Notes under the pieces: generated by a model | The model's input: only the letters and a program-made list of their open reading frames with translations | The model's database searches: none | Told to the model about the DNA's origin: nothing | Program-made: the position numbers and the translations under genes | Assembly: GCA_964621525.1 (NCBI GenBank) | Contig: CAZUMS010000003.1 | Location: 37,129 to 101,128 of the forward strand | Direction of reading: 5' to 3' | Length of the DNA stretch: 64,000 nt | DNA from: an uncultured bacterium | GTDB taxonomy: Bacteria; JAGRBM01; JAHCIT01 | Shown here: positions 7,584 to 33,000 of the stretch, one piece after another | How the letters are laid out: the number at the start of each line of letters is the position of its first letter | How positions within the stretch are numbered: position 1 is the first letter of the stretch

Positions 7584-7800
7584 GGCTTTTCCTGCCTCTC
7601 CCGTTTTTCATCGTTCGGGAACGGAACCCTTGGAAGATCACCGGCGGACCTCCGGCCTTTACAACCTGTCCGTCTGCCGGATCCATTTCAGACCCGGCGG
7701 GGATCTCTTCGGGTTCCGGACCTCGTTTCAAATGGTTTTTGTCTCTCAGGCGAGACAGGCCGGGCCGGGTGGATCGGACGGCACGGCAGTCTTTCCCACC
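7584..7800 (-). promoter_or_regulatory. amt1 5' leader (~215 nt) with conserved 5' block
   Basis: Minus-strand block gggaaagac..gtgccg..gatccacccgg.ccgg..gtct.gcctgag (plus 7741-7800) is shared with the amt2 leader (plus 10196-10245); it lies immediately downstream of the predicted sigma54 promoter. Confidence 0.5.
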
Positions 7801-7809
7801 GGGGCGGAC

Positions 7810-7825
7810 TGCACTTGGCAGGCCA
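7810..7825 (-). promoter_or_regulatory. sigma54 (RpoN) -24/-12 promoter for amt1
   Basis: Minus strand TGGCCTGCCAAGTGCA: GG and GC in canonical positions (TGGCAC-N5-TTGCA spacing). Confidence 0.55.
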
Positions 7826-8085
7826 CGATGATCTGCAGCCGGACAAAAAGCGCCTGAAGGCAGGGTTGAATCCGCCGGAAGTTCAGGACGCGACAAACAA
7901 ACTCAAGCTACTGTAAGTATAAGCGAAATTAAGGAATCCTCCCCCGGCTGAAGGCACAGCTTTCGGGGTTCATTTTTTTGTCAAGGCTACAGGCTCCCGG
8001 CCCGGAACTAGTGTCTAAATATGTTGCAAGGATGCGGCTGAGAGCCGAGGCTTTGCCCGGAAATTGTGCATCCGGACGAAAATGG

Positions 8086-8349
8086 GGGCCGGTGCCCAGC
8101 CAGGGATTGGGAAAACCGGGTCCAGTACCGTTTTGCCGGAGCCCGTCAGCCGGATCATTTGCACGATCCGGCGATCCCGTGACGGTTCCGAGTACCGGAC
8201 CTCGGTCGAGGAAACCCTCTGCCGGGCGCCGGCCTGCCCAAGGTCGTTGCGAAGCGGCGGAACCCGAAGGAGAAGAGGCACCATTGGCTGCGCGGCGGTT
8301 GCGTTGCGGTTCATGTTGCCTCCCTCCTTCAGTGTCCGGCTTCCAGGCG
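8086..8349. repeat. conserved ~265-nt noncoding element, copy B (immediately 3' of amt2)
   Basis: See copy A. Contains SD gaaggagggagg plus ATG ~36 nt after the amt2 stop (track ORF 8015..8314). Confidence 0.7.
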
Positions 8350-10038
8350 TCAGCGGGCGTGCGGGGTCTCGGACGCCTTGTCCATCACGACACCCACATA
8401 CGCGGCGCAGCCCATTTCCGGGATATCAAGACCCTCAATCTCGGCTTCCACGGGTGTCCTGAGACCGACAGTCACATCGAGCAGCTTGAAGACCGCAAAA
8501 CCGATGGCGCCCACATAGACGAAGTTCGTGAGCACGCCGATCGACTGGGCGATGAACTGGCTCGCATCTCCGTAGAAGAGGCCCTTCACCGGACCGGCAA
8601 CGCCGTTCCAGCCATCGCCGTAGGAACCGTCGGCGAAAAGACCCAGGGCGAGGCAGCCCCAGGCGCCGTTCACGCCATGGACCGCCACCGCACCTACCGG
8701 GTCGTCGATCTTGAGGACGCGCTCGATGAAGAACACGGCCTCGACCACGATGATGCCGGAGACGAGCCCGATGATGCAGGAGGCCATGGAGTTCACGAAC
8801 GCACAGGGTGCCGTGATCGCCACAAGCCCGGCGAGCATACCGTTCGCCATCATGCTGGGATCCGGCTTACCCATCCGGAAAGCCCAGCAGTAGAGCGTGG
8901 CCGCGAGCGCGCCGGTCATGGATGCGAGCATCGTGTTCACGGCTACCACTGCCAGACGAAGATCCGTGCCAGCGAGTGTTGAACCGGGGTTAAACCCGAA
9001 CCAGCCGAAAGCGAGAATAAAGGTGCCGATGATTGCCATCGGAATGTTGTGGCCGGGGATCGGGTTCGGCGAGCCGTCCTTGTTGTATTTTCCGGCGCGG
9101 GGGCCAATCAGCCATCCGCCCACGAGCGCGAGCACGCCGCCCGTCATGTGCACGACCGAGGAGCCGGCGAAATCCACATGCCCGTGACCGAGGCCGTAAT
9201 ACTTGCCCAGCGTCGCCAGGAAGCCGCCGCCCCAGACCCAGCAGCCGTAGATCGGATAAATGATCGTGCCGACGGCGAGGCCATAGAGGAAGAACGACTT
9301 GTAGTTCCAGCGTTCGGCCATGGAACCGGTGGGAATCGTCGCCGTGGTGTCCATGAACACCATCTGGAAGAGGAACAGCGCGAAGATCGAGACATCGTAG
9401 ACGTCGGATCCGAGGAAGAAGCCCTTCGTACCGAACAGCACCCAGTCGTTACCGCCCACCTTGATCGAGAAGGCGGAGTTCAGCACATCCGTGCCGCCCA
9501 GCGTGCCCAGCGCCCCGAAGCCGCCGAACATGAAAGCGAAGCCGCACACGTAGAAACCGAGCATCCCGAGCGGATAGATCAGGAAGTTCATGGCCATTGT
9601 ATGCGACGCATTCTTGGCGCGGGTGAAGCCGGTCTCGACCATGGCGAATCCGGCCTGCATGAACATGACGAGGAAGCCGGCCAGCATGGTCCACACCATG
9701 TTGATCGAAACCTTGTTCTTGCCGACCTGGTTGGCGACGTCGCCCAGGGTCAACTTACCGGCTTCCGACTGAGGAACATCGGTCATGTTGCCCGTGGCGC
9801 CGCCACTGGGATCCGGCGCCCGCGGCGAGGCCGGCGCCTCGACCGTAATGCTCATCTCCACTGGCGCGGGCGGCGCTGCCGGCGGAGCGGGTGTGGCGGC
9901 GGCCTCTGCCGCCGGCGCAGAAGTCTCCGCCGGAGGTGGTACGGTTTCGTCGGCATTGGCCCAGTGGGGAACAATCAGTAGCGCGGCTGCGAACCAGACG
10001 ATCGCCGCAAAACTCATAATCTTTCTGGATTTACTCAT
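8350..10038 (-). CDS. amt: ammonium transporter (Amt/MEP family), paralog 2
   Basis: 562 aa; signal peptide MSKSRKIMSFAAIVWFAAALLIVPHWANA, Pro/Ala-rich linker, Amt core (NMVWTMLAGFLVMFMQAGFAMVETG). About 50% identity to paralog 1. Confidence 0.9.
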   Translation of the reverse strand: MSKSRKIMSFAAIVWFAAALLIVPHWANADETVPPPAETSAPAAEAAATPAPPAAPPAPVEMSITVEAPASPRAPDPSGGATGNMTDVPQSEAGKLTLGDVANQVGKNKVSINMVWTMLAGFLVMFMQAGFAMVETGFTRAKNASHTMAMNFLIYPLGMLGFYVCGFAFMFGGFGALGTLGGTDVLNSAFSIKVGGNDWVLFGTKGFFLGSDVYDVSIFALFLFQMVFMDTTATIPTGSMAERWNYKSFFLYGLAVGTIIYPIYGCWVWGGGFLATLGKYYGLGHGHVDFAGSSVVHMTGGVLALVGGWLIGPRAGKYNKDGSPNPIPGHNIPMAIIGTFILAFGWFGFNPGSTLAGTDLRLAVVAVNTMLASMTGALAATLYCWAFRMGKPDPSMMANGMLAGLVAITAPCAFVNSMASCIIGLVSGIIVVEAVFFIERVLKIDDPVGAVAVHGVNGAWGCLALGLFADGSYGDGWNGVAGPVKGLFYGDASQFIAQSIGVLTNFVYVGAIGFAVFKLLDVTVGLRTPVEAEIEGLDIPEMGCAAYVGVVMDKASETPHAR

Positions 10039-10248
10039 GATCGGTTTCCTGTCTCTCCATGAAATTCACTGCCGCCGTTTCACTTCATCCTGCGGGAGCC
10101 CGGCGCCGGAATCCGTCGTCGGCCCTTCTGGATGGAGCAGCCGACTCAAGCTCGTCGGCGGTTTCAGCAGTGCCGTTGTTGAGGCCTCAGGCAGACGGAC
10201 CGGTCCGGGTGGATCTGGCGGCACAGTCGTCTTTCCCGTCCGAGACGA

Positions 10249-10264
10249 AGCATCAGCTATGCCA
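10249..10264 (-). promoter_or_regulatory. sigma54 (RpoN) -24/-12 promoter for amt2
   Basis: Minus strand TGGCATAGCTGATGCT: TGGCAT-N5-ATGCT with GG/GC at canonical spacing; followed by a leader conserved with amt1. Confidence 0.55.
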
Positions 10265-10460
10265 TAAAAATGAACTAAAAATTTTAGTCTATTTCCGAGA
10301 TATATTCGGAAGAAATATCGGGAATAACGATGTCGAAATTTAATTCATAAGTATATGATATTATTTATATATTTTACCAATTACGGAGATAAATACAGCA
10401 CACCCGAAGGGACGTATTATCCTTCAAATAAATTGTACTAAAAATATGTGTTCATTCTTC
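10265..10460. promoter_or_regulatory. AT-rich island (~200 bp, roughly 25-30% GC) upstream of the amt2 sigma54 promoter
   Basis: Sequence aaaaatgaactaaaaattttagtctatttccgagatatattcgg...tatatgatattatttatatattttaccaatt in a ~67% GC genome; position fits an enhancer/IHF-bending region for a sigma54 promoter. Confidence 0.45.
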
Positions 10461-10967
10461 AAACACCGGTTGAGAACCGTGCGAGGATTTCCGTAATGCC
10501 TCAAAAATTGGCGATTCGAAGACCTGTCGCCCCATTTCTGGGCACATCTGTTCTTTCACCTCTGAATCCCGCTGCCGGAATGTCCAAAAACATGCTCTGT
10601 GGAAATCATTTTCTACCTTTTATTTCACATGGTTATAAAAGTCCTACGTATTCCGAAGCTCCCGGTGGAGTTCTTGGTTTCTGCCTTGCACATTGGGGAA
10701 ACGCTGAACCGGCCTGCCAGAGGATGGGGAACGTCCCGGTCGGGACCGGAAAGCCCGGTCCATACTGTTCTGTTAAGGACAGCTGGATCAGGAGAGCGGT
10801 CGGCAAGGTGGGACGGCGCCGGGTGAAAAACCGGCGCACCGGTGGATTCGGAACCCGTTAAACCCGGCACTCCAAAGAACAAGAAGCCGGTATCAGAGCC
10901 GTCCGGCGGGAGTGCGGAGGAAATCCGCCCCGCCCATGGCAACCCGGATTCCGGGTAGCTAGGTTAG

Positions 10968-11342
<375 letters not shown>

Positions 11343-11494
11343 TCCTGGAATAAAGAGTTCAAGATATCGGCAGGCGGCAGCAGGATCCCGTGCGGCAGCC
11401 GGCCGGAGGCGGGCAAGCGGCAACTGAAAAGGTGCAGGCTCCCGGTGGAAAACCAAAGCAGGGAAAAACAAACCCAAGGAGCACTGGTGTCATT

Positions 11495-12913
11495 ATGACG
11501 ACAGGCAAAGACGTTCTGAAAATGATCAAGGACCACGGCGTCGAGATGGTGGACCTCAAGTTCACCGACTTCCTCGGCTCGTGGCAGCACAAGAGTCACC
11601 CGATCAACATGATCGACGAGGATACGTTCACCGACGGCCTCGGTTTCGACGGCAGCTCGATCCGCGGCTGGGCCGACATCCAGGAATCGGACATGCTCTC
11701 GATCCCGGACCCCTCGACCGCCCGCATCGACCCGTTCATGCAGCATCCGACGCTGTCGCTCGTCTGCGACATCGTGGATCCCATCACCCGCCAGCCGTAT
11801 TCCCGCGACCCGCGCTATATCGCCAGGAAGGCCGAGGCCTACCTGAAGTCGACCGGTATCGGCGACACGGCCTATATCGGGCCGGAGCCGGAATTCTTCA
11901 TTTTTGACGACATCCGGTACGAGGTCGGCCAGCACAAGTCGTTCGTCTCGATCGACTCGGGCGAGGCCCACTGGAACTCGGGCCGCGACGAAGGCGGCAA
12001 CCAGGGCTACAAGATCCGCCCGAAGGAAGGCTACTTCCCGGTTTCCCCGTTCGACCAGCAGCAGGACATCCGCACGGAAATGTGCCTCGTCATGCAGAAG
12101 GTCGGCATCGCGGTCGAAACGCAGCACCACGAAGTCGCCACTGCCGGCCAGGCCGAGATCGACATGGTGTTCGACTCGCTGCTGAACATGGCCGACAAGG
12201 TGATGTGGTACAAGTACATCTGCCGCAACGTCGCCAAGCGCCACGGCAAGGTCGTGACGTTCATGCCGAAGCCCATGCCGGCCGACAACGGGTCGGGCAT
12301 GCACACCCACCAGTCGGTGTGGAAGGGCGGCAAGAACCTGTTCGCGGGCAGCGGCTACGGCGGACTGTCCGAGTTCGGCCTCTACTACATCGGCGGCATC
12401 CTGAAGCACGCCAAGGCTCTCAACGCCTTCACGAACCCGACGCTGAACAGCTACCGCCGTCTGGTTCCGGGCTTCGAGGCGCCGGTGTCCCTGGCCTACT
12501 CGTGCCGTAACCGCTCGGCCTCCTGCCGCATCCCGATGTACAGCAACAGCCCGAAGTCCAAGCGTGTGGAAGTCCGCTTCCCCGACGCGACCTGCAATCC
12601 GTACATCGCTTTCGCCGCCATGCTCATGGCCGGCCTCGACGGTGTTCAGAACAAGATCAACCCGGGCGATGCGCTGGACAAGAACCTGTACGATCTCTCG
12701 CCGGAAGAGCTCGCCAACGTGCCGCAGGCCTGCGGCTCGCTGGAAGAGGCGCTCGAGGCTCTGGAGAACGACCACAAGTTCCTCCTGAAGGGCGACGTCT
12801 TCACGAAGGACGTGATCGACACGCAGCTCGCCTGGAAGCGTCACCACGAAATCGACGTGGCCCGTTTCACGGTTCCGCCGATCGAGCACAAGCTCTACTT
12901 CGACGCCGGCTGA
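11495..12913 (+). CDS. glnA: glutamine synthetase type I
   Basis: 472 aa from [32 protein letters not shown]; SD aaggag 15 nt upstream; GS-I motifs ([25 protein letters not shown]). The track ORF begins 35 codons upstream at a GTG. Confidence 0.95.
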
Positions 12914-15093: not shown

Positions 15094-16359
15094 ATGCCGA
15101 AGAAAATCCTGGTCGCCGACGATTCCGTCACCATCCAGCGGGCCGTCCAGATCACCTTTTCAAACCAGCCGGATTTCACCGTCGAGTTCGCCAGGGACGG
15201 GGACGAGGCGCTCGCGAAGTTCAAGGCATCGAAACCCGATGCCGTCGTCGCCGACGTCGTGATGCCGAAGAAGAACGGTTACGACGTCGCCGAGGCGCTC
15301 AAGGGCCAGGGCGTGCCGGTGGTGCTGCTCAAGGTCAACTCCGAACCCTACAACGATGCCCGTGCGGCCGCCGCCGGAGTTGTCGAGGCGGTGCCGAAGC
15401 CCTTCGAAACGACGGCCCTCGTAGACGCCGTGAAGAACGCCATCGCCAAAGGCGCGGGCAAGGGCGCACCCGCCCCTGCCGCCGCGAAGCCCGCTGCTGC
15501 CCCGGCGGCGCCCAAACCGGTGGCTCCGGCACCTGCGGCGGCGAAGCCTGCGCCCGCCAAGGCGCCGGTTTCCCTCGAAGAAGAGACCGATTCGTGGGAT
15601 CTCGGCGAACCCGAAGCAGCCCCCGCCCCCGTGGCGGCCAAGGCTCCGGCTCCCGCGAAACCCGCCGCTCCTGTTCTCAAAGCTCCGCCTCCCTCGCCGC
15701 CCAAGCCGGCGCCAAAAGCGGTCGAGGAAGACTCGTGGGATCTTGGCGAACCGGAGGCTCCGGCAGCAGCCGCATCCCTCGAAGCCGAAGTCGAAGTCTC
15801 CGTCGAGACGGCGGCGGAGTCCCCCGCCTGGGATCTCGGCGAGACGGAAGCCGTTCCGGCTGAGACCGAAGCCGAAGTCGAGGTCGAACTGGCGGCCAGC
15901 GGCGGCGACATGTGGGATCTAGGCGAAACTGAAGCCGCCCCGGCCGTTCCCCCCGCGTCGATTGCGCCGTCCTTCGGACGCCAGGCTCCGGCGGCCGAGG
16001 TGGAAGTCGAACTGGCCTCGGACGGCGGCGATACCTGGGATCTCGGCGAGCCAGAAGCTGCTCCGCCCGCTCCCGCGACGCCACAGAAAATTCCGGTGAC
16101 TCCGCCCCCCGCGCCGCCGCCAGCTGCCCGTGCGGCTCCGGTTGCTCCGGCGGCAAAATCTGCCCCCGCCGCCCCCGCCACCGCCGTTCAGGTCAATGCC
16201 GCCCAGATCGAAGCGGCCGTGCGACAGGCGATCGAGCTGGCGCTCAAGCCCATGATCGACGAATCCGTGAAGCGGATCTCGAAGGCGATTACCGACGAGT
16301 TCCCGAAGATCGCCGAACGGCTGATCCAGAACGAGATCGACCGGCTCAAGGAAGGCTGA
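15094..16359 (+). CDS. response regulator with Pro/Ala-rich repeat linker and conserved C-terminal helix (RomR-like architecture)
   Basis: N-terminal receiver (ILVADDS...DAVVADVVMPKKNGYD...LLKVNSEP); ~250-aa A/P/E-rich linker with 5 copies of xWDLGE(P/T)EA(A/V)P; C-terminal AVRQAIELALKPMIDESVKRISKAITDEFPKIAERLIQNEIDRLKEG. Confidence 0.6.
   Translation: MPKKILVADDSVTIQRAVQITFSNQPDFTVEFARDGDEALAKFKASKPDAVVADVVMPKKNGYDVAEALKGQGVPVVLLKVNSEPYNDARAAAAGVVEAVPKPFETTALVDAVKNAIAKGAGKGAPAPAAAKPAAAPAAPKPVAPAPAAAKPAPAKAPVSLEEETDSWDLGEPEAAPAPVAAKAPAPAKPAAPVLKAPPPSPPKPAPKAVEEDSWDLGEPEAPAAAASLEAEVEVSVETAAESPAWDLGETEAVPAETEAEVEVELAASGGDMWDLGETEAAPAVPPASIAPSFGRQAPAAEVEVELASDGGDTWDLGEPEAAPPAPATPQKIPVTPPPAPPPAARAAPVAPAAKSAPAAPATAVQVNAAQIEAAVRQAIELALKPMIDESVKRISKAITDEFPKIAERLIQNEIDRLKEG
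15590..16060 (+). repeat. five dispersed ~33-nt direct repeats (tgggatctcggcgaaccngaagc) encoding the WDLGE motifs
   Basis: gattcgtgggatctcggcgaacccgaagcagcc / gactcgtgggatcttggcgaaccggaggctccg / gcctgggatctcggcgagacggaagccgttccg / atgtgggatctaggcgaaactgaagccgccccg / acctgggatctcggcgagccagaagctgctccg. Confidence 0.7.
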
Positions 16360-16543: not shown

Positions 16544-18043
16544 ATGGCAGGGAACGGTTCGGCGGGTACAGGCAACGGCGGGGAACTCCCCTTCCCGACA
16601 GTGGCCATCATCGGCACCGGCTTCGGCGGCCTGTGCATGGCGATCAAGCTGAAGGAGGCCGGTTACAACTCCTTCACCATTTTCGAGAGGGCCTCCCGCG
16701 TCGGCGGAACCTGGCGGGATAACAGTTACCCCGGCGCCGCCTGCGACATCCCTTCCCATCTCTATTCGTACTCGTTCGAGCCCAAGTCGGACTGGACCCG
16801 GGGATTCCCCGAGCAGAAGGAAATCCTCGAATACATAGAGCACTGCGTCCGCAAGTACGGCCTCGAACCGCACATCCAGTTCAATTCGGAGATCGAATCC
16901 TGTTCTTTCGACGAGCAGACGGGTCTCTGGACCGTGCGGACAAAGGGCGGCGAGATCCACAAGGCCCACGCGCTTGTGGCCGGTACAGGTCAGCTGAACC
17001 GTCCGGCGTATCCGAAGATCAAGGGGATCGACAGCTTCGAGGGTACCCAGTTTCACTCCGCCCGCTGGAACCACGAGCACAGGCTCCGTGGCCGGAGCGT
17101 CGCCGTCATCGGCACAGGTGCAAGCGCCATCCAGTTCATCCCGCCCGTCGCCGAACAGGCGAAACAGCTTTATGTGTTCCAGCGGACACCTCCCTATATC
17201 CTCGAAAAGCCGGACCGGGCGTTCATGGAGTTCGAGAAGTCGGTCTTCAGAAAGGTGCCGGCCGTGCGGGAATTCTACCGGCAGCGCATCTACTGGAGTC
17301 TCGAGACCCGGTTCTCGGCGCTCGCCCAGAAGAGCTTCCTGTCGGATCTCGTGACCCACGCCGCGATCCAGCATCTGGAAAACCAGGTGAAGCTCCCCGA
17401 ACTCCGGAAAAAACTCACGCCCGACTACCCGCTCGGCTGCAAGCGGATCCTGATCTCCAACGATTTCTATCCGGCGATGCAGCGGCCGAACGTGGAACTC
17501 GTGACCGATTCCATCGACCGGATCACGAAAAACTCGATCATCACGAAGGACGGCATCGAGCGAGAAGTGGATACGGTCATTTACGGCACCGGCTTCCAGA
17601 CGACCGGCTTCCTCGCGCCCATGAAGATCACCGGGCTCGGGGGCCGCGACCTGAACGACACCTGGAGGGATGGCGCGGAAGCCTACTACGGCGTGACCGT
17701 AACGGACTTCCCGAACCTGTTCATCCTCTACGGACCGAACACGAACCTCGGCCACAACTCGATCATCTTCATGATCGAGTGCCAGGTCCATTACACGATG
17801 CAGTGCCTCAAGCGCCTTGTCAGCCGCCGCCTCAAGTACCTGGATCCCTCGCCCGACGCCATGCGCCAGTACAACGAGTGGGTGCAGCGCCGCCACGGCA
17901 AGCTCGTCTGGAGCTCCGGCTGCGAGAGCTGGTACAAGAACGAGGCCGGCAAGGTGACGAACAACTGGCCGGGCTACACCGTGACCTACTGGCGGCGCAC
18001 CCGCCGCCCTGACTTCGGGAGCTACCGCGAAGTGCTCCAGTAA
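16544..18043 (+). CDS. flavin-containing (Baeyer-Villiger-type) monooxygenase
   Basis: 499 aa; FAD site IGTGFGG; BVMO fingerprint FEGTQFHSARW; second Rossmann VIGTGASA. Confidence 0.8.
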   Translation: MAGNGSAGTGNGGELPFPTVAIIGTGFGGLCMAIKLKEAGYNSFTIFERASRVGGTWRDNSYPGAACDIPSHLYSYSFEPKSDWTRGFPEQKEILEYIEHCVRKYGLEPHIQFNSEIESCSFDEQTGLWTVRTKGGEIHKAHALVAGTGQLNRPAYPKIKGIDSFEGTQFHSARWNHEHRLRGRSVAVIGTGASAIQFIPPVAEQAKQLYVFQRTPPYILEKPDRAFMEFEKSVFRKVPAVREFYRQRIYWSLETRFSALAQKSFLSDLVTHAAIQHLENQVKLPELRKKLTPDYPLGCKRILISNDFYPAMQRPNVELVTDSIDRITKNSIITKDGIEREVDTVIYGTGFQTTGFLAPMKITGLGGRDLNDTWRDGAEAYYGVTVTDFPNLFILYGPNTNLGHNSIIFMIECQVHYTMQCLKRLVSRRLKYLDPSPDAMRQYNEWVQRRHGKLVWSSGCESWYKNEAGKVTNNWPGYTVTYWRRTRRPDFGSYREVLQ

Positions 18044-18068: not shown

Positions 18069-18113
18069 AACACCCGGGGGCGGCGCCTTTTAATCGGCGC
18101 CGCCCCCGGTGTG
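18069..18113. terminator. bidirectional Rho-independent terminator (17-bp GC stem)
   Basis: cacccgggggcggcgcc-ttttaat-cggcgccgcccccggtg, flanked by tttaaaa and tgttctg; lies between the convergent BVMO and receiver genes. Confidence 0.75.
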
Positions 18114-18172
18114 TTCTGAGGAGGAGGGGAGAGAAGAGAAAGGACGTCAGGGACTCTTTGAAAATCTTCCGG

Positions 18173-18508
18173 TCAATGGACTGCGGCCAGCACGGTCCGG
18201 AGGCGGTCCGACAGGCGGGTCCCGCTTGGCAGCACGCCGGCGGCCCTGGACGGCGAAGCCTCGAATGCCTCGTCGTCCGCGCCCACTACAATCACATGGG
18301 TACGCTCGGCCAGCGCCTCGACCGTCTCCGAATCGATTCTGGCGTTCTCGACCATGACCCAGTCGTAGGTCCGCCGCCGCACGGCATCGAGCACTCCGCC
18401 GTCGTTCCCATCACGAAGCGAATCGATGCAGACCTGTCCGTAGAGCAGCACCTGGAGCGCCGCCACCACACTGGGATCCGAGCCCGCGATCAGCCCTCGT
18501 TTCATCAC
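18173..18508 (-). CDS. stand-alone receiver (CheY-like) domain protein, possibly degenerate
   Basis: 111 aa; LIAGSDPS...YDWVMVE...HVIVVGAD resembles a REC fold, but the acidic pocket is not clearly canonical. Confidence 0.35.
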   Translation of the reverse strand: MMKRGLIAGSDPSVVAALQVLLYGQVCIDSLRDGNDGGVLDAVRRRTYDWVMVENARIDSETVEALAERTHVIVVGADDEAFEASPSRAAGVLPSGTRLSDRLRTVLAAVH

Positions 18509-19049
18509 GACTGTCTCCTTGCCGGGACCGGCAGCGCGTTTCTATAACTGCTCCACTGCCGTTCTCTGCCCTAACAAATACACAACTCGTGCCAGAAAAC
18601 CGCCGCGCGGGTTAAATGTGGATAACGGAGAAAACCCTTCTGGTAACAGCCGCTTACCGGGCCTGCGTCAATACGCCTGTTTACCTGTATCTTTTTGGTG
18701 TGAGCGTTGCCCCGTGCCCGGATCACAGGGTGTAATCCTGCGCAGACACCTGTCTGCAAACGGCACGCAAGCGTTGCGGGGTCTTGTGAATCTCCGCTCA
18801 CAGTTGTTGACAAGGGTCCACCCCCTGCTGGGCGGCAAAACGTGCGTCAGGTCACATGTAACCTGTTGAAATCCAAGGCTTATCAGCCCCCAACAAACGT
18901 GACTTGCATCGCTTCACATGGGAATTTTGGAGTGGTATGGTATTTGGGCTTCCGGGGGGACGCCGATTCAACCGATATAGTGCGACCTGCCGGAACCGCT
19001 GGCTGCGGGCCAGTGGTGGACTTTTATGTTCACGGGAGAAGAAGCCGTC
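18509..19049. promoter_or_regulatory. 540-bp reduced-GC divergent intergenic region with inverted repeats
   Basis: TGTGAatctccgcTCACA (~18786-18804), gtcacatgtaac near-palindrome (~18851), GTGACttgcatcgctTCAC (~18903), tggtatggtat direct repeat; GC visibly below the window average. Confidence 0.4.
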
Positions 19050-21023
19050 ATGAAGATAAAGCACAGTCGCTCGATCTGGAAAACCGTCGCGCTTTCAGCC
19101 GCCGCCCTGCTTGTTGCGGCGGGCTGCGAATCTCCCCAGGAGTCCGGCACCGCCCAGGTTCCGATCAACGTCCTCCTGAAACCAGCGGGCATATCTGCCG
19201 CCGCGCTGTCGCCGACCGTGAATGATCTCTGTGAAAGCGCCGCACTTCCTGAATATGTGCGGTTCCGGTTCACCGACGTCAATGGCGAACAGGCGCTCGA
19301 GCGCTACTACGAAGGGCTCCTCACCGAAGAGGATCTGGCCAATACCGGCGGCTTCGTGAAAACTCCCGATGATCTCCCGTACCGCGAGATCGTCTATGTG
19401 AATCCCTATATTGACCCCCTCCCCTACGAAGGTAATGCCGAGGTGGTGGGCAGCCTTTTTGAGCAATCTTCTTCCGGCCTCTCGGGTGTCTTCCTGTTGC
19501 CCAAAACCCGCCTCCGTATCGAGTTCACCGCCTGGACCCGTCCGGCCATTGAGGACGGTATTTATTCCGTGACGCCGCAGTTCTGTCAGGGCGAGACCGA
19601 TATCGAGATTACCGGCGATGACGAAGTGACTATCGAGGGCAATCGCGCGGAAACCGCCGAGGTCGATGTGAGCGTCCGGATGAACGGCAACACCGATGGC
19701 CCGGCCCCGTTCGCCTATTTCGCCCTTGTGGATTTCGATACCGGTTACGGTTTCCCTGTTCGCACGATCGCCGACGACGAGTTCGTGGACCCCTACAGCA
19801 ATTTTTCGGTGGACAACGCGAACGTGATCCCGGAAGTCCCGGTGGGTCGCGACTATACATTCGTCGCCTGGCATCCGGGCCGCTATCCGTACGGCGGCAA
19901 CGGCGGCTTCATCACGGAGATCCAGAACACCGGCAAATACGAGGTGGATGAGATCGATGACCTGACCACCGAAGGCGGCAGCGCCTCGGTGAACATCAAC
20001 CTGTCGCAGGACCAGCCGCTCATTTTCTTCGGAATTGATGAAGATGCACCTAGAGGGATTCCAACAGTTGCAATTTCCGCCGATGATCGCTCGAAAAGCG
20101 CTTCGGACGAGGCCGAGAGGGCCGAAAAGTTCAAGGGTGCCCTCGATGTCATCGGCGCCATCAAGATCTGCAATCTCGCCGACGGTGACGAATACAACGC
20201 TGGCTACTCTATCAATGACTATGACTGTGCTACTGGCAATTTGGCAGAGCCCATGCTGACGCCGCCCGAAATGGCTTTTGTCAGCGGCGCTTACGGCTAT
20301 GAATATAGCTCCAATTCCGGGTTCGCCCTCGAACGGACCGAGGCGCTCGCCGATAAGGACTTCTTTATATCAGAAGAAGGACTGACCATTACGGCCAATG
20401 CAACCTATGGGTATGTGTCTATACCAGTGCCTGATCCCGACCGTTCCTCGGGCCGCGGCCTCGACACCAACGTCATTCAGCCGGACTGGGGTGTGGGCCT
20501 TGCACGGTCGTTCTGTGTCTATACCAAGTACGTTGCCGGCATTGAGGCGAAGTTCACCTCCGCCCGCCTGTTCGACGATCCTTCCAGCAAGATCTCCGAG
20601 GCGAACCTGTACCAGTCCCAGGATTCCGCCGTGAAGAACGGTCTCTGCCGCGCCGACAGCGAAAGCGCCACGATCCTGAACCCCGGCATCTCGCTCCGGA
20701 ACGGTGTCTTCTTCCAGACCCGCCGGAACCTGGCCCCGGCGAACTTCACCGGCACGTTCAATAACAACGATTCCAATAATTTCGGCTTCACTGTTCCGCC
20801 GGGCTTCGACGTCATCATCGTACCCGAGCCCGGCGACGGCCAGCGGCCACACTTCGACCCCCCCGCCATCTTCTGCGATGACGGGGCCTGCTTCGGCGAA
20901 GCCCTGTGTAGTTTTGCCGCTGGCCAGGAAATGCGCGCCTACAGCGTGGGCCCGAACGAGGTCCCATCGCTTGAGTTCCTTTCCCTGACAGTGGGCGTGG
21001 GCTCGGAAGACGCCTGTTTCTGA
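19050..21023 (+). CDS. acidic Cys-containing lipoprotein of unknown function (657 aa)
   Basis: MKIKHSRSIWKTVALSAAALLVAAGC lipobox; SD gggagaagaag; D/E/N/Y-rich; codon usage and GC (~55%) lower than neighbours. Confidence 0.7.
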   Translation: MKIKHSRSIWKTVALSAAALLVAAGCESPQESGTAQVPINVLLKPAGISAAALSPTVNDLCESAALPEYVRFRFTDVNGEQALERYYEGLLTEEDLANTGGFVKTPDDLPYREIVYVNPYIDPLPYEGNAEVVGSLFEQSSSGLSGVFLLPKTRLRIEFTAWTRPAIEDGIYSVTPQFCQGETDIEITGDDEVTIEGNRAETAEVDVSVRMNGNTDGPAPFAYFALVDFDTGYGFPVRTIADDEFVDPYSNFSVDNANVIPEVPVGRDYTFVAWHPGRYPYGGNGGFITEIQNTGKYEVDEIDDLTTEGGSASVNINLSQDQPLIFFGIDEDAPRGIPTVAISADDRSKSASDEAERAEKFKGALDVIGAIKICNLADGDEYNAGYSINDYDCATGNLAEPMLTPPEMAFVSGAYGYEYSSNSGFALERTEALADKDFFISEEGLTITANATYGYVSIPVPDPDRSSGRGLDTNVIQPDWGVGLARSFCVYTKYVAGIEAKFTSARLFDDPSSKISEANLYQSQDSAVKNGLCRADSESATILNPGISLRNGVFFQTRRNLAPANFTGTFNNNDSNNFGFTVPPGFDVIIVPEPGDGQRPHFDPPAIFCDDGACFGEALCSFAAGQEMRAYSVGPNEVPSLEFLSLTVGVGSEDACF

Positions 21024-21165
21024 CGCCGCCGTCCTGATTCAGCCGGAACGGGCTCCCAATGAGGAGCCCGTTCTGTTTCAGGGTCGGCTCCGCCGCGCTT
21101 GATTTCCCCGGTGCGGGCCGGAATCGTCACAGCCTCAGGGCCACAACGCCCGGCGGAGGATACCC

Positions 21166-21657
21166 ATGCCGTCGTTCGACATCGTCAGCGAGATCAACCT
21201 GCAGGAGCTGGACAACGCCCTCAATCAGGCGCGCAAGGAACTTCAGCAGCGGTTCGACCTCAAGGACTCAGGCAGCGAGATCGCCGACGATATGAAGGAA
21301 AAGGTCATCACCATTTCCTCGGGCAGCGATTTTACGCTGAAACAGGTGACCGGCATCCTGGAGAACAAGCTCGCCAAGCGGAGTGTGCCGATCCAGAACT
21401 TCGAGTACCTTCCGGTAGAGAAGGCGGCCGGCTCCAGCGTGCGCCAGAAGATCCGCGTGAAAACCGGTATCGACAAGGAGCCTGCCAAGGAGATCGTGAA
21501 GGCCGTGAAGGATTCGGGCCTCAAGCTGCAGGCCTCGATCATGGACAACCAGGTTCGCGTCACCGGGAAAAAGCGGGACGACCTGCAGGAATGCATCGCG
21601 CTGCTCAAGGGAAAGCCGTTCGGCCTTGCCCTCCAGTTCACGAACTTCAGGGAGTGA
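21166..21657 (+). CDS. yajQ: YajQ family nucleotide-binding protein (UPF0234)
   Basis: 163 aa MPSFDIVSEINLQELDNALNQARKELQQRFDLKD... typical YajQ. Confidence 0.85.
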   Translation: MPSFDIVSEINLQELDNALNQARKELQQRFDLKDSGSEIADDMKEKVITISSGSDFTLKQVTGILENKLAKRSVPIQNFEYLPVEKAAGSSVRQKIRVKTGIDKEPAKEIVKAVKDSGLKLQASIMDNQVRVTGKKRDDLQECIALLKGKPFGLALQFTNFRE

Positions 21658-24902: not shown

Positions 24903-25322
24903 GAGAGGGGTACCACCTTGCGCGGAGACGCCATCTCTGAAGGCTGGGGCTTCCGCGAAAGCGCCCAAGCTATAGTCCCCCTCCCCGGCGGTCAAGATCG
25001 GATCCGGGCGCGGACAACGCCGGTTCCGCCCGAACCGGACCCGTGCTCTTTCACGGGAAAACGGCGCGATCTGCATACCACCTTCAGCCGATTTCCCGAT
25101 TAGTTACCGGGACTTGCAACGCACGCCCGGTTCCGGGTATTCTTCAAGCCGACTCGCAGTTCCAGATTGTTTTCTGTCCCACCTGCGAAACGAGGAGGCC
25201 GTGCGTGAATTCGCCCGGCCGGTCCGGCTGCATCCCGAATGCTGCGGACCCTCTGTAGCGGCCACGCAGGTCTCCCCGGCATACGCAGTCTTTCCGTTCT
25301 GGATGTACACAGGAGTTTTCCC

Positions 25323-28300
25323 GTGCCGAACCGCCGTCTTTCGATTCTGGCCCTCACCCTCGTTGCCGGCCTGCTGGGTTTTTCCCCGGCCCATGCCCTG
25401 AATGTCGAATGGGAGAACGCCTTCGGCAGCCGGGGCGAAGGTTCCGGCCAGTTCAGCACGCCCCTTCACGCCGCCGTCGACGAGAAGGGTAACTATCACG
25501 TCACCGATTCCCGGAACGGCCGGGTCCAGGTGTTCGATCCGAAGGGACTCTATCTGCGTTCCTACGGGCATCTCTCCTCGCCCCGGCTGTCGCGGCCCTC
25601 GGGCATCGCCATCAGCCCGGTCACGAAGCTGATCTTCGTCACCGACACGGACCAGCATCTTCTGTTTGTCTTCAACCCGGACGGAACGCTCAAGGAAACC
25701 CTTGGCGGCAGCGGTTCGGAGCCTGGCTACCTGAGCAGCCCGCAGGGCGTCTCCGTGGGCCGGGGCGGCCGGGTCTACGTCGCAGATACCGGCAACGGCC
25801 GCATTTCCGTGTTCGGCGAGGACGGCCTGTTCCTCGGCGTCTTCGGCCCCGAGACCCGGAACACGGTCGCCACGCTCAAGAAGCCCGTGGATGTCGCCAC
25901 AGACATCGAGGAAACGCTCTACGTCGCCGACGCGGGCCTGAGGGAAGTGGTCATTTTCAGCCGCGAGTGGCGGCGTCTCACCAAGATCGGGCGCGAGCGG
26001 GGGTTCGACACCCCCGCAGCGGTCGCCGCCGATCGCTACGGTAGCGTCGCCATGCTGGACGAGGGCAGCCAGCGGATCTTCCATTTCGCCGCCGGCCAGA
26101 AGCCGCTTCAGACCTTCGGTTCCGAGGGCACCGCGCAGGCCCAGTTCCAGGACGCAGGCGGCCTCCTGTTCGACGAAGTGAACAACCGGTTCGTGGTCGT
26201 GGACGGCGGCAACCAGCGGGTCCAGACCTTCCGGCACCGGAGCCGTGAGGAACAGCAGGAGCTGCCGCCTTACCAGCCCGGTTTCACGCTCGAATACGTT
26301 CGTTCGATCTCCGCCCGCGCTGATGATCTGGATGCGGCTGACGGACGGCTTTATGCCTTGAACCGCGAGGCGAAAGAAATCCGCATCTATTCGGCCGACG
26401 GAGCCGAGCAGGGCCGCATCCCGCTCAAGTGGGGTTCCAAGGACGATACCGACGATCCTTCGCGGATCCTGTTCGCCAGCGACACGGTCTATGTGACCGA
26501 CTCGGGCGCAGGCGACGTGAAGATGTTCGACCCCAAGGGAGTATTCCGCGGACGCATGGGCTCCAAGGGATCGGAACCGGGCAAGCTCCGGGATCCAAAG
26601 GGCATGTTTGCCGATGAACGGTTCATCTATGTGGTCGACCGGGGCAACGACCGGATCTCGCTGTTCAGTCCGAACGGCGGCTTCGTGACCGTGAATCAGG
26701 CGAAAGGATCGGGCGAACTGGATGAGCCCTGGGACGTCGTTACCGACCGTGAAGGGAATCTCTACGTGGCCGATGAAGGCCGCAATCAGGTCATGAAATA
26801 TTCACGAAACAGCCAGTTCCTCAATGCCCTCTGCAAGGAGGGTTACGGGCCGGGGTTTCTCCAAGGCCCCGTCTCCATCGAGATCGACAAGATGGAAGTG
26901 CTCTATGTGCTGGACGAGAACGGAGTTACGGTCGCCGACCGGGAGTGCAAGCCCATCGCCCGCTTCGGAGCCGGAAAGGGCAAGGGCAAGGGCCGCTTCC
27001 AGCTGCCCGGCGGTCTTGCCGTGGATGATTCCCGCGGCGTGCAGATCTACTTTTCGGACCCCGCCAACAATGTGATTCATGTGGTCGCCTACAAGCAGAC
27101 GCCTACGGCGGCCGTGAATTTCAAGGCGGCGCCCGGCAAGACCGGCGCCACCTTCAGCTGGGACGGCCCGCAGGAAGCATTCCGCGAAACCTGGGTGCTC
27201 GAAGGCGCCGTGAAGCCCGACGGCCCGTTCTCGAAGGTCGTCGAAGCGAAGGCATCGCCCGTCACCGTGAACTACCCCGTGGCCGGGGACCCGGTGTATT
27301 TCCGGGTCGTGGCGAGGAGTTTCTCGGGCGTCGAAAGTGCGCCCTCCCTCGTCGTTACGGACGTCTACCGCCAGGCGCAGCTCTATTTCGCGGCCCGGCA
27401 GTACGACGCGGCCCTGACCAAGGCGGACGAATATCTCTCGGGCGTTCCCGATCAGCCGGACGCCCTGCTGCTCAAGGCCCGTACGCTGACAGCCCTCACG
27501 CAGCCGCAACGGGCCGCGGAAATCTACCGTAAGCTGGCCGAAGTGGCGGGTTACGAGGAAACCGCCCTCGAGGAACTGGGCCGCATCCATGCCGCCGAGG
27601 GCAAGTACCGCGAGGCGACCGAGGCCGCGACGAGACTGCTCACAAAGAACGACAAGTCGGTGGCGGGATACAAGCTGCTGGCCGAGGTCGCCCTTGCCTC
27701 GGGCTCGCTCGACGATTCCATCTCACAGTCGGCGCGGGCGCTGGCCATCGCCCCCGACGACACGGGTGCCATGGATCTGCAGGCGAAGGCCTATATCAAG
27801 AAGGGTCTCGGCGACGAGGCGATCCGCATCTATTCAGCCGCGATCAAGATCAACAAGACCGATCCACGCCTCTACGCCGGCATCTCGGCGGCGCTTCTCG
27901 CCACAAACCGGCCCAGCCAGGCGGTTCCCTACCTCCAGTGGGTCGTGAAGACGCAGCCCAAGGAAGTTCCCGCCCGCGCCATGCTCGCCCGGGCGCTTCT
28001 GGCCTCCAAACAGCCAACCCCCGCCGCCGAACAGGCGGAGGAGATCAAGAAACTCGCGCCGGATTCGCCAGAAGGGTACGAACTCGCAGGCTTCGCGGCC
28101 CGTGATCTCGGCAATGCCGGAAAGGCGATCTTCGAGCTCGAGCAGGCGGCCCGCAAGGACCCGCAGAACCCCCGCTACCAGATCCAGCTCGGACTGCTCT
28201 ATCAGCAGAACAACCGTCCGGGAGACGCCAGCCAGGCGTTCCAGAAGGCTATCGCACTCACGCCGAATACGGCCAAGGAACGCCGCGTGCTGGCGGACCA

Positions 28301-29171
28301 GCTCTTCGAAGCCAAGCTCTACCCGCTGGCGGTCATCGAATACGACAATGTCTTCAAGCTGGATCCCAAACAGACGGATGCTCTCGTTCAGGGAGCCGAG
28401 TGCTATTTCCTCCTGAACCGGACCGAGCCGGCCCGCAATCTGTATTTAAAGGCCATCGACGCCAATCCGAACGCGTCGGTGGCACATTTCCGCCTCGGCA
28501 GCATGCATATGACGGCCAAGGAGTTCGACAAGGCGGTTCCCCGGCTCATGCTCGCCGCCCGGATCGACCCCCGCCAACCGCTCTACCCAGCGCTGCTCGG
28601 CGATTCGTTCTCGGCCCTGGGCGACTACCGCTCGGCGTCCGAATCCTACCAGCTTGCGACGCAGCTCGAACCCACGAATGCCCAGTACCAGGCGAAGTTC
28701 CGCGAGGCGAAAGGCAAATACGACGCCGCTCCGTATGAACTCACCGGCCCGCTGGAAGTCGTGGACCTCACGGTGCCCGATCTCGAGCAGTCGTCGTTCG
28801 AGTCCTACCGGCAGAACGGCGCCCTCACGGTGAAGTTCGCCAACAACGCGGCGAAGCCCGTCTACCGGATCCGGCTCAAGTTCAGCGTCGTGGGGATGCT
28901 CCAGTATCCGTTCGAGGACCAGATCTCGTCCGTCGAAACGAAGGAAACGAAATCCCTCGTCGTGAAGCCCCGCTTCAACCAGGCGGCCATGGATCTTCCC
29001 GCCGACACCTTCGGGATTGCTGCATTCGAGATCGAATATTTCTTCCAGAAGAAACAGTACAACTACACGCTCTACCGGTCGGTGCTCATGAAAGCCGACC
29101 TCGCAGCCAGGAACACCCCTGCCCCCATGCCGGCAGTTACGCCGCCGCCTCCCGGCTATCCGGGGCGGTAG
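25323..29171 (+). CDS. secreted NHL-repeat beta-propeller / TPR-repeat protein (~1280 aa)
   Basis: GTG start with SD aggag; signal peptide NRRLSILALTLVAGLLGFSPAHA; at least 10 NHL-like units (GxGxGQFxxPxGvAvDxxGnvYVaDxxNxRvqvF); central Fn3-like segment; C-terminal ~15 TPR units. Confidence 0.75.
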   Translation: MPNRRLSILALTLVAGLLGFSPAHALNVEWENAFGSRGEGSGQFSTPLHAAVDEKGNYHVTDSRNGRVQVFDPKGLYLRSYGHLSSPRLSRPSGIAISPVTKLIFVTDTDQHLLFVFNPDGTLKETLGGSGSEPGYLSSPQGVSVGRGGRVYVADTGNGRISVFGEDGLFLGVFGPETRNTVATLKKPVDVATDIEETLYVADAGLREVVIFSREWRRLTKIGRERGFDTPAAVAADRYGSVAMLDEGSQRIFHFAAGQKPLQTFGSEGTAQAQFQDAGGLLFDEVNNRFVVVDGGNQRVQTFRHRSREEQQELPPYQPGFTLEYVRSISARADDLDAADGRLYALNREAKEIRIYSADGAEQGRIPLKWGSKDDTDDPSRILFASDTVYVTDSGAGDVKMFDPKGVFRGRMGSKGSEPGKLRDPKGMFADERFIYVVDRGNDRISLFSPNGGFVTVNQAKGSGELDEPWDVVTDREGNLYVADEGRNQVMKYSRNSQFLNALCKEGYGPGFLQGPVSIEIDKMEVLYVLDENGVTVADRECKPIARFGAGKGKGKGRFQLPGGLAVDDSRGVQIYFSDPANNVIHVVAYKQTPTAAVNFKAAPGKTGATFSWDGPQEAFRETWVLEGAVKPDGPFSKVVEAKASPVTVNYPVAGDPVYFRVVARSFSGVESAPSLVVTDVYRQAQLYFAARQYDAALTKADEYLSGVPDQPDALLLKARTLTALTQPQRAAEIYRKLAEVAGYEETALEELGRIHAAEGKYREATEAATRLLTKNDKSVAGYKLLAEVALASGSLDDSISQSARALAIAPDDTGAMDLQAKAYIKKGLGDEAIRIYSAAIKINKTDPRLYAGISAALLATNRPSQAVPYLQWVVKTQPKEVPARAMLARALLASKQPTPAAEQAEEIKKLAPDSPEGYELAGFAARDLGNAGKAIFELEQAARKDPQNPRYQIQLGLLYQQNNRPGDASQAFQKAIALTPNTAKERRVLADQLFEAKLYPLAVIEYDNVFKLDPKQTDALVQGAECYFLLNRTEPARNLYLKAIDANPNASVAHFRLGSMHMTAKEFDKAVPRLMLAARIDPRQPLYPALLGDSFSALGDYRSASESYQLATQLEPTNAQYQAKFREAKGKYDAAPYELTGPLEVVDLTVPDLEQSSFESYRQNGALTVKFANNAAKPVYRIRLKFSVVGMLQYPFEDQISSVETKETKSLVVKPRFNQAAMDLPADTFGIAAFEIEYFFQKKQYNYTLYRSVLMKADLAARNTPAPMPAVTPPPPGYPGR

Positions 29172-31356: not shown

Positions 31357-33000
31357 TCATTTCAGCGCGAGGGAAAGTTTCTCCAGGACCCGGCGGCGGG
31401 ATTCGAAATCGGCAAAATCGGGTTTTGGCGAGAAAAATTCGCCCCGGATAACGAGTTCCCCGTCCGGTGGGCGGGATGAAGAACCCGCACCAAGCCACAG
31501 TCCGAGCCGCCCGTCCGGAACGGGCTCCACCCGCACAGTCCCGGCGTCCAGCCACAAACGACGGTCCAATCGGTCCTTTTCCATGTCGAGTTCGAGCCTC
31601 ATGGAACGGACTTCCGATTCGAGCAGCGGAAACTTCCGGCCACCCGTGAACGAGGTGATCCCGAGTGCCGTAACCTCGGGCGCGACAAATTCAAGAAGCG
31701 GACGTCCGATCTTCCCGAAGGCGGTTCTGGCGGAGAGTTTTCCGGTCTTCCGGTCAAAACGGACGCCCAGGGAGAACTCCGAATGGCGAAACCGGTACAG
31801 GACGGGGATCATCTTGCCCGGTTCCTTCACCGTCGCCCGGTCCAGCCGGAAATCCCAATAACCATCACCGGTTTCCAGCGATGCCGAGGGGCCTTTGGCG
31901 GGCCCCTGAAAGCCGAAACGGTCCGGCTCCGAAACGTCCAGATCCGCGAATCTCAGCTCCGAGAAATTGACCGGAACGCCGGCCCATTTCAGCCCGATCA
32001 GGCGGCTCAGGTCGATCACGCCCGGTGATCCGTCCGGCGAAGGCCACCGGAACGAACTGCCCAATTCGACGGATGAGAGTTTTCCGCCGGAGAATATCCA
32101 ACGGACCGGTTCCGGACCCACCAGGAGTTCACCCTTACTTTCCTCCGGTGAGATGGAAAGATCGAGCGAGCCTTTCAGGCTTGCGCTGTTTTCAGAAGAC
32201 AGTTCCCAGTCCTTCAGCACCAGCCGGCGTTTCGAATCCTCAACCAATATCGAGGTTCCGGCCCCTGCCTTCAAGGTCCAGTCCGGCATAAAGAACGAGA
32301 ACATCAGCGAAAGATCCGCAGGGCCTTCAAGGAATATCCCGGATCCGGAAATTCGTACCGGTCCTACAGGACCTCCGAGGTCCGGCTGAACGGCCATGAG
32401 CCATCCTTCGCCGCCAGACGGCTGCCGGGTGAACATCCAGAGCAGTTCGTTCTGGTTCCGGAACAGCCGGAGGCTCCCCTTCCCTTCCTGCCAGCGCAGG
32501 GAGAAGTTCACGGTCCGGGAGCGTTTCCCGGCCTGGCCGTCAATCTCAACCACCAGAGGCAGGGACGGACTCACACCCTGCAGGCCGGTGAGGGCATCGA
32601 ACAGGGCACGTCCAGTTGCCGCTGGCCAGTCCGGCAGCGAGAGGTCAAGCGGCAGTTCGCCGGAGGGATCGAGCACGAGGCCGGCCCCCGTCATCGTGAC
32701 GCGCCGGGGACGGCCGCCTTTCAGGATGTCCAGCCAGGAGAGCCGGGCTTCAAACCGTCCGAGGGCGAGGATCAGCGTTCCGAGCTCCGTCCGGCGGGAG
32801 GCGCGAATGCCCGCTACCTGCCGGGAGACGCCGGCAAGGCCGATCCGGTAGCCTGCCCCCGAGGCGGACACTTCCGTCCAGCCCTCGCGCTCCAGCGCGG
32901 CCCTGAGTTCCTGCACGGAGCCGGTATCCGGGACCGAACAGCCCGCGACAAGGGCCAAAACCCCCAGAGCCGCGAGCCACGGTAAACGCCTTCTGCGCAT
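31357..33000 (-). CDS. hypothetical lipoprotein (547 aa)
   Basis: MRRRRLPWLAALGVLALVAGCS lipobox; no recognised domain; lies between gatB and mtnA. Confidence 0.6.
   Translation of the reverse strand: MRRRRLPWLAALGVLALVAGCSVPDTGSVQELRAALEREGWTEVSASGAGYRIGLAGVSRQVAGIRASRRTELGTLILALGRFEARLSWLDILKGGRPRRVTMTGAGLVLDPSGELPLDLSLPDWPAATGRALFDALTGLQGVSPSLPLVVEIDGQAGKRSRTVNFSLRWQEGKGSLRLFRNQNELLWMFTRQPSGGEGWLMAVQPDLGGPVGPVRISGSGIFLEGPADLSLMFSFFMPDWTLKAGAGTSILVEDSKRRLVLKDWELSSENSASLKGSLDLSISPEESKGELLVGPEPVRWIFSGGKLSSVELGSSFRWPSPDGSPGVIDLSRLIGLKWAGVPVNFSELRFADLDVSEPDRFGFQGPAKGPSASLETGDGYWDFRLDRATVKEPGKMIPVLYRFRHSEFSLGVRFDRKTGKLSARTAFGKIGRPLLEFVAPEVTALGITSFTGGRKFPLLESEVRSMRLELDMEKDRLDRRLWLDAGTVRVEPVPDGRLGLWLGAGSSSRPPDGELVIRGEFFSPKPDFADFESRRRVLEKLSLALK

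Follow-up and report, generated by a model that had tools for sequence, protein, structure and literature searches.

An orphan lipoprotein gene and a divergent pseudo-receiver gene flank a conserved, length-constrained intergenic region in a rarely sampled bacterial lineage

The divergent gene pair and its products

The stretch of DNA analysed here (the window; 64 kb of contig CAZUMS010000003.1 from an uncultured bacterium) contains two divergently transcribed genes, one for an acidic lipoprotein of an orphan family and one for a small receiver-like protein, separated by a long intergenic region in which a core of about 380 bp is conserved in sequence and in length (Table 1). The initial annotation had described the intergenic region together with the lipoprotein gene (18509-21023) as an island of reduced GC content, with candidate operators of the CRP/FNR type and with the small protein as a possible regulator. 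Wherever both sides of a locus can be inspected, the two genes lie next to each other and point in opposite directions, i.e., in the window, in its closest relative (L006), and in the loci L001/L002/L018, L007/L011, and L008-L010, and all five lineages that carry either gene carry the pair; L001, L007, and L008 stand for the distant lineages. Across these loci, the intergenic region measures ~430-540 bp between the aligned start codons, and identity between lineages is 60-64% for the small protein and 38-51% for the lipoprotein. Scanning genomes and metagenomes with the profile of the small protein gave known loci only. One metagenome-assembled genome of this lineage is labelled 'Deltaproteobacteria'. 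The small protein, more conserved than its partner and never separated from it, thus ties an exported lipoprotein to a receiver-like protein of the cytoplasm by a genetic link that can be tested; taken alone, a protein of this kind would be one more entry without annotated function from an undersampled lineage.

For the lipoprotein gene, the start codon ATG 19050, with GGGAGAAG ahead of it at 19034-19041, is favoured over the in-frame ATG 19026, since the orthologue N-termini align from MK.K/MKLS. The N-terminus, MKIKHSRSIWKTVALSAAALLVAAG-C26, begins with a K/R-rich n-region, continues with a hydrophobic core, and ends in the lipobox LVAAG-C26, so that the features by which lipoproteins are recognised (basic n-region, h-region, and a lipobox within the first ~35 residues) are all present. 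We assigned this signal by eye from the sequence and the orthologue alignment, in which the AAGC motif is position-invariant in six orthologues (TGC in P0013). The mature protein (632 amino acids, aa) has an isoelectric point of 4.10, with 98 D+E against 39 K+R residues, which bears out the acidic character noted at the outset; the number of Cys residues is 11 rather than the ~14 then given. Seven of these (C26, C61, C179, C374, C393, C489, and C533) are invariant in six sequences, which fits an exported, disulfide-bonded protein of an oxidising compartment. Judged from its sequence, the protein is probably exported by Sec and lipidated at Cys26, and the Glu at position +2 points to the outer membrane or the cell surface. 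The hairpin after the stop codon is likely a terminator, in which case the lipoprotein gene would be monocistronic.

That the lipoprotein has no recognisable domain holds under permissive thresholds for all six family members, none of which matched Pfam, NCBIfam, PADLOC, or the PDB sequences. A word-indexed search of 5.8 billion proteins returned 4 matching clusters, and a profile search run exhaustively over 1.84 billion representatives returned 5 true family members and no known family. Two further candidates from these searches, P0015 and P0016, were rejected as Flg_new repeat proteins whose weak match covers one beta-hairpin motif (GY.F.GW). Likewise, an aspartic-protease reading of the invariant 'DTGYGFP' motif was dropped, as no family of such proteases scored. 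An AlphaFold2 model built from 6 sequences has an overall predicted local distance difference test score (pLDDT) of 38, with values of 56-83 in parts of a beta-rich N-terminal region (~60-210). A Foldseek search of the PDB with this model gave nothing at E<=0.001, returning only generic folds of the immunoglobulin-like pilin and cadherin kind, and the model was not used further.

The small protein could be placed more firmly, and its description as a degenerate receiver, divergently transcribed, is confirmed. Its AlphaFold2 model (pLDDT 76, predicted template modelling score 0.71) comprises five strand-helix units (E-H-E-H-E-H-E-H-E-H) in the CheY-like (beta-alpha)5 order, and Foldseek matches in the PDB are nearly exclusively receiver domains, the best with template modelling (TM) scores of 0.6-0.78, among them FrzS and the CikA pseudo-receiver. 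At the sequence level, six members of the family gave no match to PF00072 at E<=10, and the window protein matched no Pfam or NCBIfam family at E<=0.1. Mapping the alignment onto the predicted strands, a positional assignment as opposed to the output of a structural superposition, puts an invariant Glu53 where beta3 ends and the phospho-acceptor Asp is expected; only Asp10, and no acidic pair, follows beta1; Gly or Ser75 occupies the Thr position after beta4; and Leu92 replaces the conserved Lys after beta5. Because Glu stands for the phospho-acceptor Asp and the Lys is missing, we regard the small protein as a pseudo-receiver, which on the predicted fold would not be phosphorylatable in the canonical way and must act via protein contacts. 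As a single domain without a DNA-binding or output domain, it cannot bind DNA itself and would act only indirectly. The proposal that it regulates the lipoprotein gene is therefore not sustained: a functional link would be in keeping with the invariant pairing, but the pairing is no proof of regulation. The family consists of six clusters, with 60-83% identity for six homologues.

Conserved blocks, spacing, and promoters of the intergenic region

The five-lineage alignment of the intergenic region reveals ~10 conserved blocks (B1-B9 and TCACAG) over ~370 bp, and the stretch from B1 through B9 with its flank measures 380, 380, 379, 387, and 376 nt in the five lineages. In four independent lineages, 78 columns are invariant, compared with 29 +/- 6 (maximum 42) in shuffles of the dinucleotide type. 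By contrast with this conservation, 4-fold degenerate sites of both flanking genes show 30-42% pairwise identity, and only 8-12% of them are the same in all four lineages. Silent sites are thus saturated while the blocks are kept, which implies that the blocks are under selection, and the initial annotation is supported in its view of the long intergenic region as regulatory. The region therefore constitutes a clean natural footprinting data set, in which length and ~10 motifs have been kept while silent sites were fully randomised.

The spacing of the blocks is as conserved as their sequence. Start-to-start distances along the core are 66-68, 31, 21, 43-44, 23, 32-33, 43-44 (52 in one lineage), 56-57, and 35 nt; these values come from the four lineages with locatable blocks, L008 entering through the alignment and its total length, and one apparent exception in L006 proved to be a mislocated match. 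Outside the core, lengths vary, from 12 to 80 nt on the side of the small gene and from ~52 to 125 nt on the side of the lipoprotein gene. In a wider search for a regulon, only chance-level matches to B8, B3-B4, and B1 were found elsewhere in the window. The intergenic region holds no conserved small open reading frame (ORF): in all frames of both strands, matches are short, and the distances between blocks differ by 1-2 nt from lineage to lineage.

Table 1. Features of the gene pair, its intergenic region, and the operon of sister lineages (window positions unless a locus is named).
Feature	Position	Strand	Description
Pseudo-receiver gene	18173-18505/18508	-	110 aa, single domain
Intergenic region of both divergent genes	18506-19049		541 bp, GC 55.8%
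Conserved, length-constrained core, B1-B9	18579-18944		Defined by five-lineage alignment
B1	18579-18594	-	Nearest the small gene; TGGCAY-N5-GTGWA
B2	18645-18658		CAGGYAGTTAAG in relatives; degenerate in the window
B3 and B4	18678-18703		TGTTTACC and TGTGA; start-to-start distance fixed at 21 nt, spacer variable
B5	18742-18749		GCAGACAC in the window; consensus GGCGACAC
B6	18765-18779		Palindrome CGCAA-N3-TTGCG; symmetrically changed to TGCAA-N3-TTGCA in L008
TGTGA-N8-TCACA	18785-18802		Right half TCACAG (18798-18803) alone kept in distant lineages
B7	18841-18862		CGTGCGTCAGGTCACATGTAAC; includes the near-palindrome GTCACATGTAAC at 18851-18862
B8	18897-18919	+	ACGTGACTTGCATCGCTTCACAT; predicted -35 hexamer TTCACA (18913-18918) and conserved upstream site
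B9, predicted extended -10	18932-18944	+	TG (18933-18934), TATGGT (18936-18941)
Predicted 5' leader of lipoprotein mRNA	18947-19017	+	Structured, z -2.1; terminator-like hairpin (18995-19017), then GGACTTTTAT
Lipoprotein gene	19050-21023	+	657 aa, acidic, orphan family; putative signal peptide, residues 1-25; codon of the putatively lipid-modified Cys26, 19125-19127
Hairpin after the lipoprotein stop codon	21044-21075	+	13-bp, G+C-rich; -41.4 kcal/mol for 21024-21095, z -5.1
Operon in sister lineages	L008 10001-13404; L011 10001-13366; L018 10001-13325		Genes for a 327-330-aa protein, AAA+, and PilZ after the pseudo-receiver gene

At the end of the core that faces the lipoprotein gene, blocks B8 and B9 supply the only sigma-70-like site that a scan of 18100-21300 returned, namely TTCACA-17-TATGGT (18913-18941) with an upstream TG. 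The equivalents in L001, L007, and L008 are TTTCAA, TTCCAA, and TTCCAA, each 17 bp from TATGGT, TATGGT, and TAGGTT, respectively, and each with TG, so that the geometry TTCNNA-17-TAKGGT plus upstream TG is kept in all five lineages. We predict this site to be the sigma-70 extended -10 promoter of the lipoprotein gene, with transcription starting near 18948. The structured leader that would follow is common to the window and L006 only. On the opposite side, B1 may serve the small gene as promoter or operator. A sigma-54 promoter at B1 was considered and rejected, since a -24 element (TGGCAC, TGGCAT, or TGGTAC) is present but the -13/-12 positions are GT or GA in all lineages; another built from GGCAC...TTGC around B6 was rejected for its spacing of 12 instead of 10. 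No intergenic region of the window contains a canonical sigma-54 site (GG-N10-GC; TGGCAC-N5-TTGC).

At 18617-18625, the intergenic region contains a perfect DnaA-box 9-mer (TGTGGATAA, which on the other strand reads TTATCCACA). The closest relative deviates from it at one position and the three distant lineages lack it, and cumulative GC skew makes no turn, so that a replication origin was rejected and the 9-mer is probably a chance occurrence.

Weighing the DNA-level reading against its alternatives

We interpret the locus, with moderate confidence, as a vertically inherited, lineage-restricted two-gene module in which an orphan lipoprotein and a pseudo-receiver share a DNA-level control region of ~380 bp, and the core most likely acts as an array of protein-binding sites on DNA rather than as RNA. 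Under this interpretation, the lipoprotein gene would be transcribed as a monocistronic unit from the sigma-70 extended -10 promoter (TTCACA-17-TGgTATGGT) to the downstream hairpin, and its acidic, beta-rich, Cys-containing product would pass through Sec, receive its lipid at Cys26, and reside in the outer membrane or at the surface. The non-canonical pseudo-receiver would work by protein contacts, and the control region would serve as the binding-site array for regulators that set the output of two divergent promoters.

Several points weigh against this interpretation. The structural model of the lipoprotein is unusable at its overall confidence and hence supports no biochemical role, so that the adhesin, Ca-binding, and S-layer roles of the initial annotation are guesses. 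Promoter and transcription start are predictions, as is the direction in which any RNA would run across the core, and a search by eye of the minus strand found no conserved sigma-70 promoter for the small gene. The composition statistics given below rest on 64 kb of genome. Fixed spacing over ~330 bp of otherwise free sequence is atypical of ordinary operator arrays and resembles more closely what structured RNAs show; with five sequences, the power to detect covariation is low; and the RNAalifold consensus energy of the plus strand is somewhat better than that of column shuffles (z -2.1, 2 of 60 shuffles being as good; z -1.5 on the minus strand).

Because five sequences give little power and such a length constraint is unusual for operator arrays, we keep in consideration, while judging it unlikely, that the core is transcribed and acts as RNA, either as the long, structured 5' leader of a minus-strand mRNA of the small gene or as an independent non-coding RNA, with the fixed spacing as a reflection of RNA architecture. 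Apart from the consensus energy, this reading has in its favour that the length changes by a few nucleotides only over ~330-380 nt while the sequence between the blocks varies, and that the B6 stem is symmetrically altered in L008 (from CGCAA/TTGCG to TGCAA/TTGCA). The folding results, however, offer little to such an RNA. In the window, single-sequence folding of the core is no better than in shuffles (z of +0.4/+0.2 and -0.5/-0.3), and in the other lineages it is weak, with z from -0.5 to -2.0 and no consistent strand. The structure conservation index of 0.147 (plus) and 0.135 (minus) lies far under values typical of structured RNA families, the RNAalifold covariation term of +0.36 is near zero, and the only helices that pair in all five sequences are 4-bp GU-rich stacks between conserved blocks. 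Rfam gave 0 matches in the window at the gathering threshold and two chance-level ones at E<=10, none of them a family for the core, and we detected no promoter directed into the core.

A different explanation, proposed in the initial annotation, concerns the origin of the locus: the lipoprotein gene and the control region would form a recent genomic islet, acquired horizontally, which would explain the low GC and the atypical codons. Part of the compositional observation stands. The GC content is 58.4% for 18509-21023 against 64.0% for the window, and windows of equal size slid along the 64 kb have a mean of 63.9% and a standard deviation of 2.2%, which places the region at z ~ -2.6; equally low values occur in 3.4% of the sliding windows, all of them at 18509-21023 or at the amtB/glnB intergenic region. 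Codon usage deviates less than had been claimed: the G+C fraction at third codon positions (GC3) of the lipoprotein gene is 0.73, in the low tail yet inside the range of 0.69-0.88 (median ~0.81) of the 44 other long ORFs of the window, and its Karlin codon bias against the pooled window genes (0.284) ranks third among the 17 genes of >=480 codons, after glnA (0.322) and the gene at 31357-33000 (0.285). The reduced GC and the somewhat atypical codon use are thus real and modest, and the low GC is due to an AT-richer control region (55.8%, compared with 59.1% for the lipoprotein gene) and a slightly relaxed GC3 that is also found in the orthologues.

In each lineage, the GC3 of the lipoprotein gene follows that of the neighbouring genes, at or just below the local median (0.59 in L001, 0.64 in L008, 0.73 in the window, and 0.80 in L011), and we therefore take it as a stable property of the gene and not as a sign of recent arrival. 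The genes around the pair do differ between the window lineage and the other lineages, a point in favour of an islet beside the low GC and the high rank in codon bias. However, the pair is syntenic in all five lineages; the 64-kb window contains no tRNA gene; a repeat search found only short chance repeats and none bounding the region; and the scanned neighbours of the pair include no integrase, transposase, or other mobility gene. The flanking genes are of the housekeeping kind (FMO, yajQ, an NADH-dehydrogenase-like (ndh-like) gene, ispA, and glnA), with RibD_C also among the neighbours. As the pair is present in every lineage with either gene, GC3 tracks the host, and tRNA genes, flanking repeats, and mobility genes are missing, horizontal acquisition is unsupported and we consider a recent islet very unlikely. 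The region is an old gene pair of one rarely sampled lineage, not a recently imported island, and correcting the horizontal-transfer reading avoids mislabelling a core, lineage-defining gene pair.

The operator question can be answered more briefly. Of the inverted repeats listed in the initial annotation, TGTGA-N8-TCACA is present and occurs once in 64 kb (0.01 expected by chance), the near-palindrome within B7 is present as well, and GTGAC-N9-TCAC is absent, the real spacer being 10 nt (18899-18917). The canonical CRP site is TGTGA-N6-TCACA and the FNR site is TTGAT-N4-ATCAA. That these repeats are operators through which a dimer of the CRP/FNR family controls the lipoprotein gene is most improbable: despite the uniqueness of TGTGA-N8-TCACA and the recurrence of GTGA/TCAC pentamers in B1, B4, B7, and B8, its 8-bp spacer is neither the 6 of CRP nor the 4 of FNR, its left half is lost in L001, L007, and L008 (GTGCC, GTCAA, and GGATC), where TCACA(G/C) alone is kept, the site lies ~150 bp upstream of the predicted start, and no CRP/FNR-family or cyclic-nucleotide-binding gene is among the neighbours scanned.

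Surroundings of the pair and relation to known systems

The small gene is the first of a four-gene operon in the three distant lineages. The second gene encodes a protein of 327-330 aa that has no known domain and apparently begins with a signal sequence, a family with 4 clusters in 5.8 billion proteins; the third encodes an AAA+ ATPase of 510-516 aa that is closest to the Cdc48/p97 D2 domain; and the fourth encodes a PilZ protein. This operon of pseudo-receiver, 327-aa protein, AAA+, and PilZ looks like an undescribed module. In two lineages, a gene for a DUF1425 (YcfL-like) protein and a gene for a domainless protein of 332-335 aa lie directly downstream of the lipoprotein gene in convergent orientation (L001 9606-11014, L011 5960-7461), and in L008 a gene with an LpoB domain is located ~6 kb away; such surroundings may represent an envelope-lipoprotein neighbourhood. 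None of the partners from the distant loci (327-aa protein, AAA+, PilZ, DUF1425, and 335-aa protein) has a tblastn match in the window, and the protein database holds no 327-aa homologue from the genome of the window, though other proteins of the same contig are present. Since partner genes were not found for the window, the invariant unit consists of the pair and its intergenic region.

A fifth homologue of the 327-aa protein (P0020) is carried by a short Logan contig of 67% GC (L020). The 127 nt upstream of it (1-127) contain no intact 3' end of a pseudo-receiver gene; one frame reads '...TTVH' before a stop, after earlier stop codons, which is reminiscent of the C-terminal '..TVH' of the pseudo-receiver family and could be a remnant or chance.

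The pairing and the AAA+/PilZ operon of the sister lineages hint at signalling related to the envelope or to cyclic di-GMP (c-di-GMP). There is also a bolder proposal: the core would be a new discrete regulatory element with a selected length, either a nucleoprotein scaffold that couples the divergent promoters or a large RNA of low stability, and the pair would be the core of an undescribed envelope-signalling system, to which sister lineages would add a helical secreted protein, an AAA+ unfoldase similar to Cdc48, and a PilZ protein that binds c-di-GMP. We regard this proposal as speculative and improbable.

Other parts of the window are of independent interest. A nitrogen-assimilation cluster spans 6084-12913, with two ammonium-transporter genes on the minus strand (6084-7583 and 8350-10038), followed by the 965-bp amtB/glnB intergenic region (10039-11003), glnB for PII (11004-11342), and glnA (11390-12913). 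At 51.5% GC, this intergenic region is the minimum of the window and a stronger compositional anomaly than 18509-21023, and no canonical sigma-54 site was found in it. The gene at 15094-16359 (plus strand) encodes a response regulator of 421 aa. Its receiver domain is canonical (PF00072, E 1e-18) and precedes a long Ala/Pro-rich region, in which the acidic motif W-D-L-G-E-[PT]-E-A is present in five copies, and a C-terminal segment without a profile match; the program TRF found no DNA-level tandem repeat in this gene. A 1310-aa protein encoded at 25239-29171 (plus strand) combines NHL/beta-propeller repeats with a long TPR array. PII, YajQ, and an FMO-like monooxygenase (11004-11342, 16544-18043, and 21166-21657) are each alone in their 90%-identity cluster among ~15 billion proteins, which indicates a deeply branching, barely sampled lineage, where orphan genes are expected.

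The components of the proposed module are of known kinds, namely a lipoprotein, a pseudo-receiver, and a multi-site divergent promoter region. The lipoprotein resembles other bacterial lipoproteins (signal peptidase II substrates of the PROSITE PS51257 type) in its n-region, its h-region, and an LVAAGC lipobox that is kept in the orthologues. It differs from them in a 632-aa mature part that matches no known family or solved structure, its sole similarity being the weak single-motif one to Flg_new.

For the control region, general knowledge suggests the csgD-csgB intergenic region of E. coli as a parallel, a large multi-input divergent control region of surface-structure genes. In both, a long region lies between divergent units, one of which encodes an exported envelope protein, and the region of the window likewise holds many separately conserved sites upstream of a predicted sigma-70 promoter. 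Unlike csgD-csgB, its spacing is fixed to 1-2 nt over ~330 bp across lineages with saturated synonymous sites, and we know of no description of such fixed spacing for large divergent control regions.

The small protein, finally, shares the CheY-like (beta-alpha)5 fold with the CikA pseudo-receiver (5jyu), the KaiA N-terminal domain (1r8j), and the FrzS receiver (2gkg/2i6f), all of which are among its Foldseek matches. As in these pseudo-receiver domains, the canonical phospho-acceptor chemistry is missing (Glu53, no Lys, and no Thr/Ser in most members), and plant pseudo-response regulators similarly have Glu in place of the phospho-acceptor Asp; for a stand-alone domain of this kind, signalling must presumably run through protein contacts. 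The small protein departs from them in forming a tiny family of its own, six clusters that show no sequence match to PF00072, and in heading, in the relatives of the window lineage, an operon whose other genes encode the secreted 327-aa protein, the AAA+ ATPase similar to Cdc48, and the PilZ protein.

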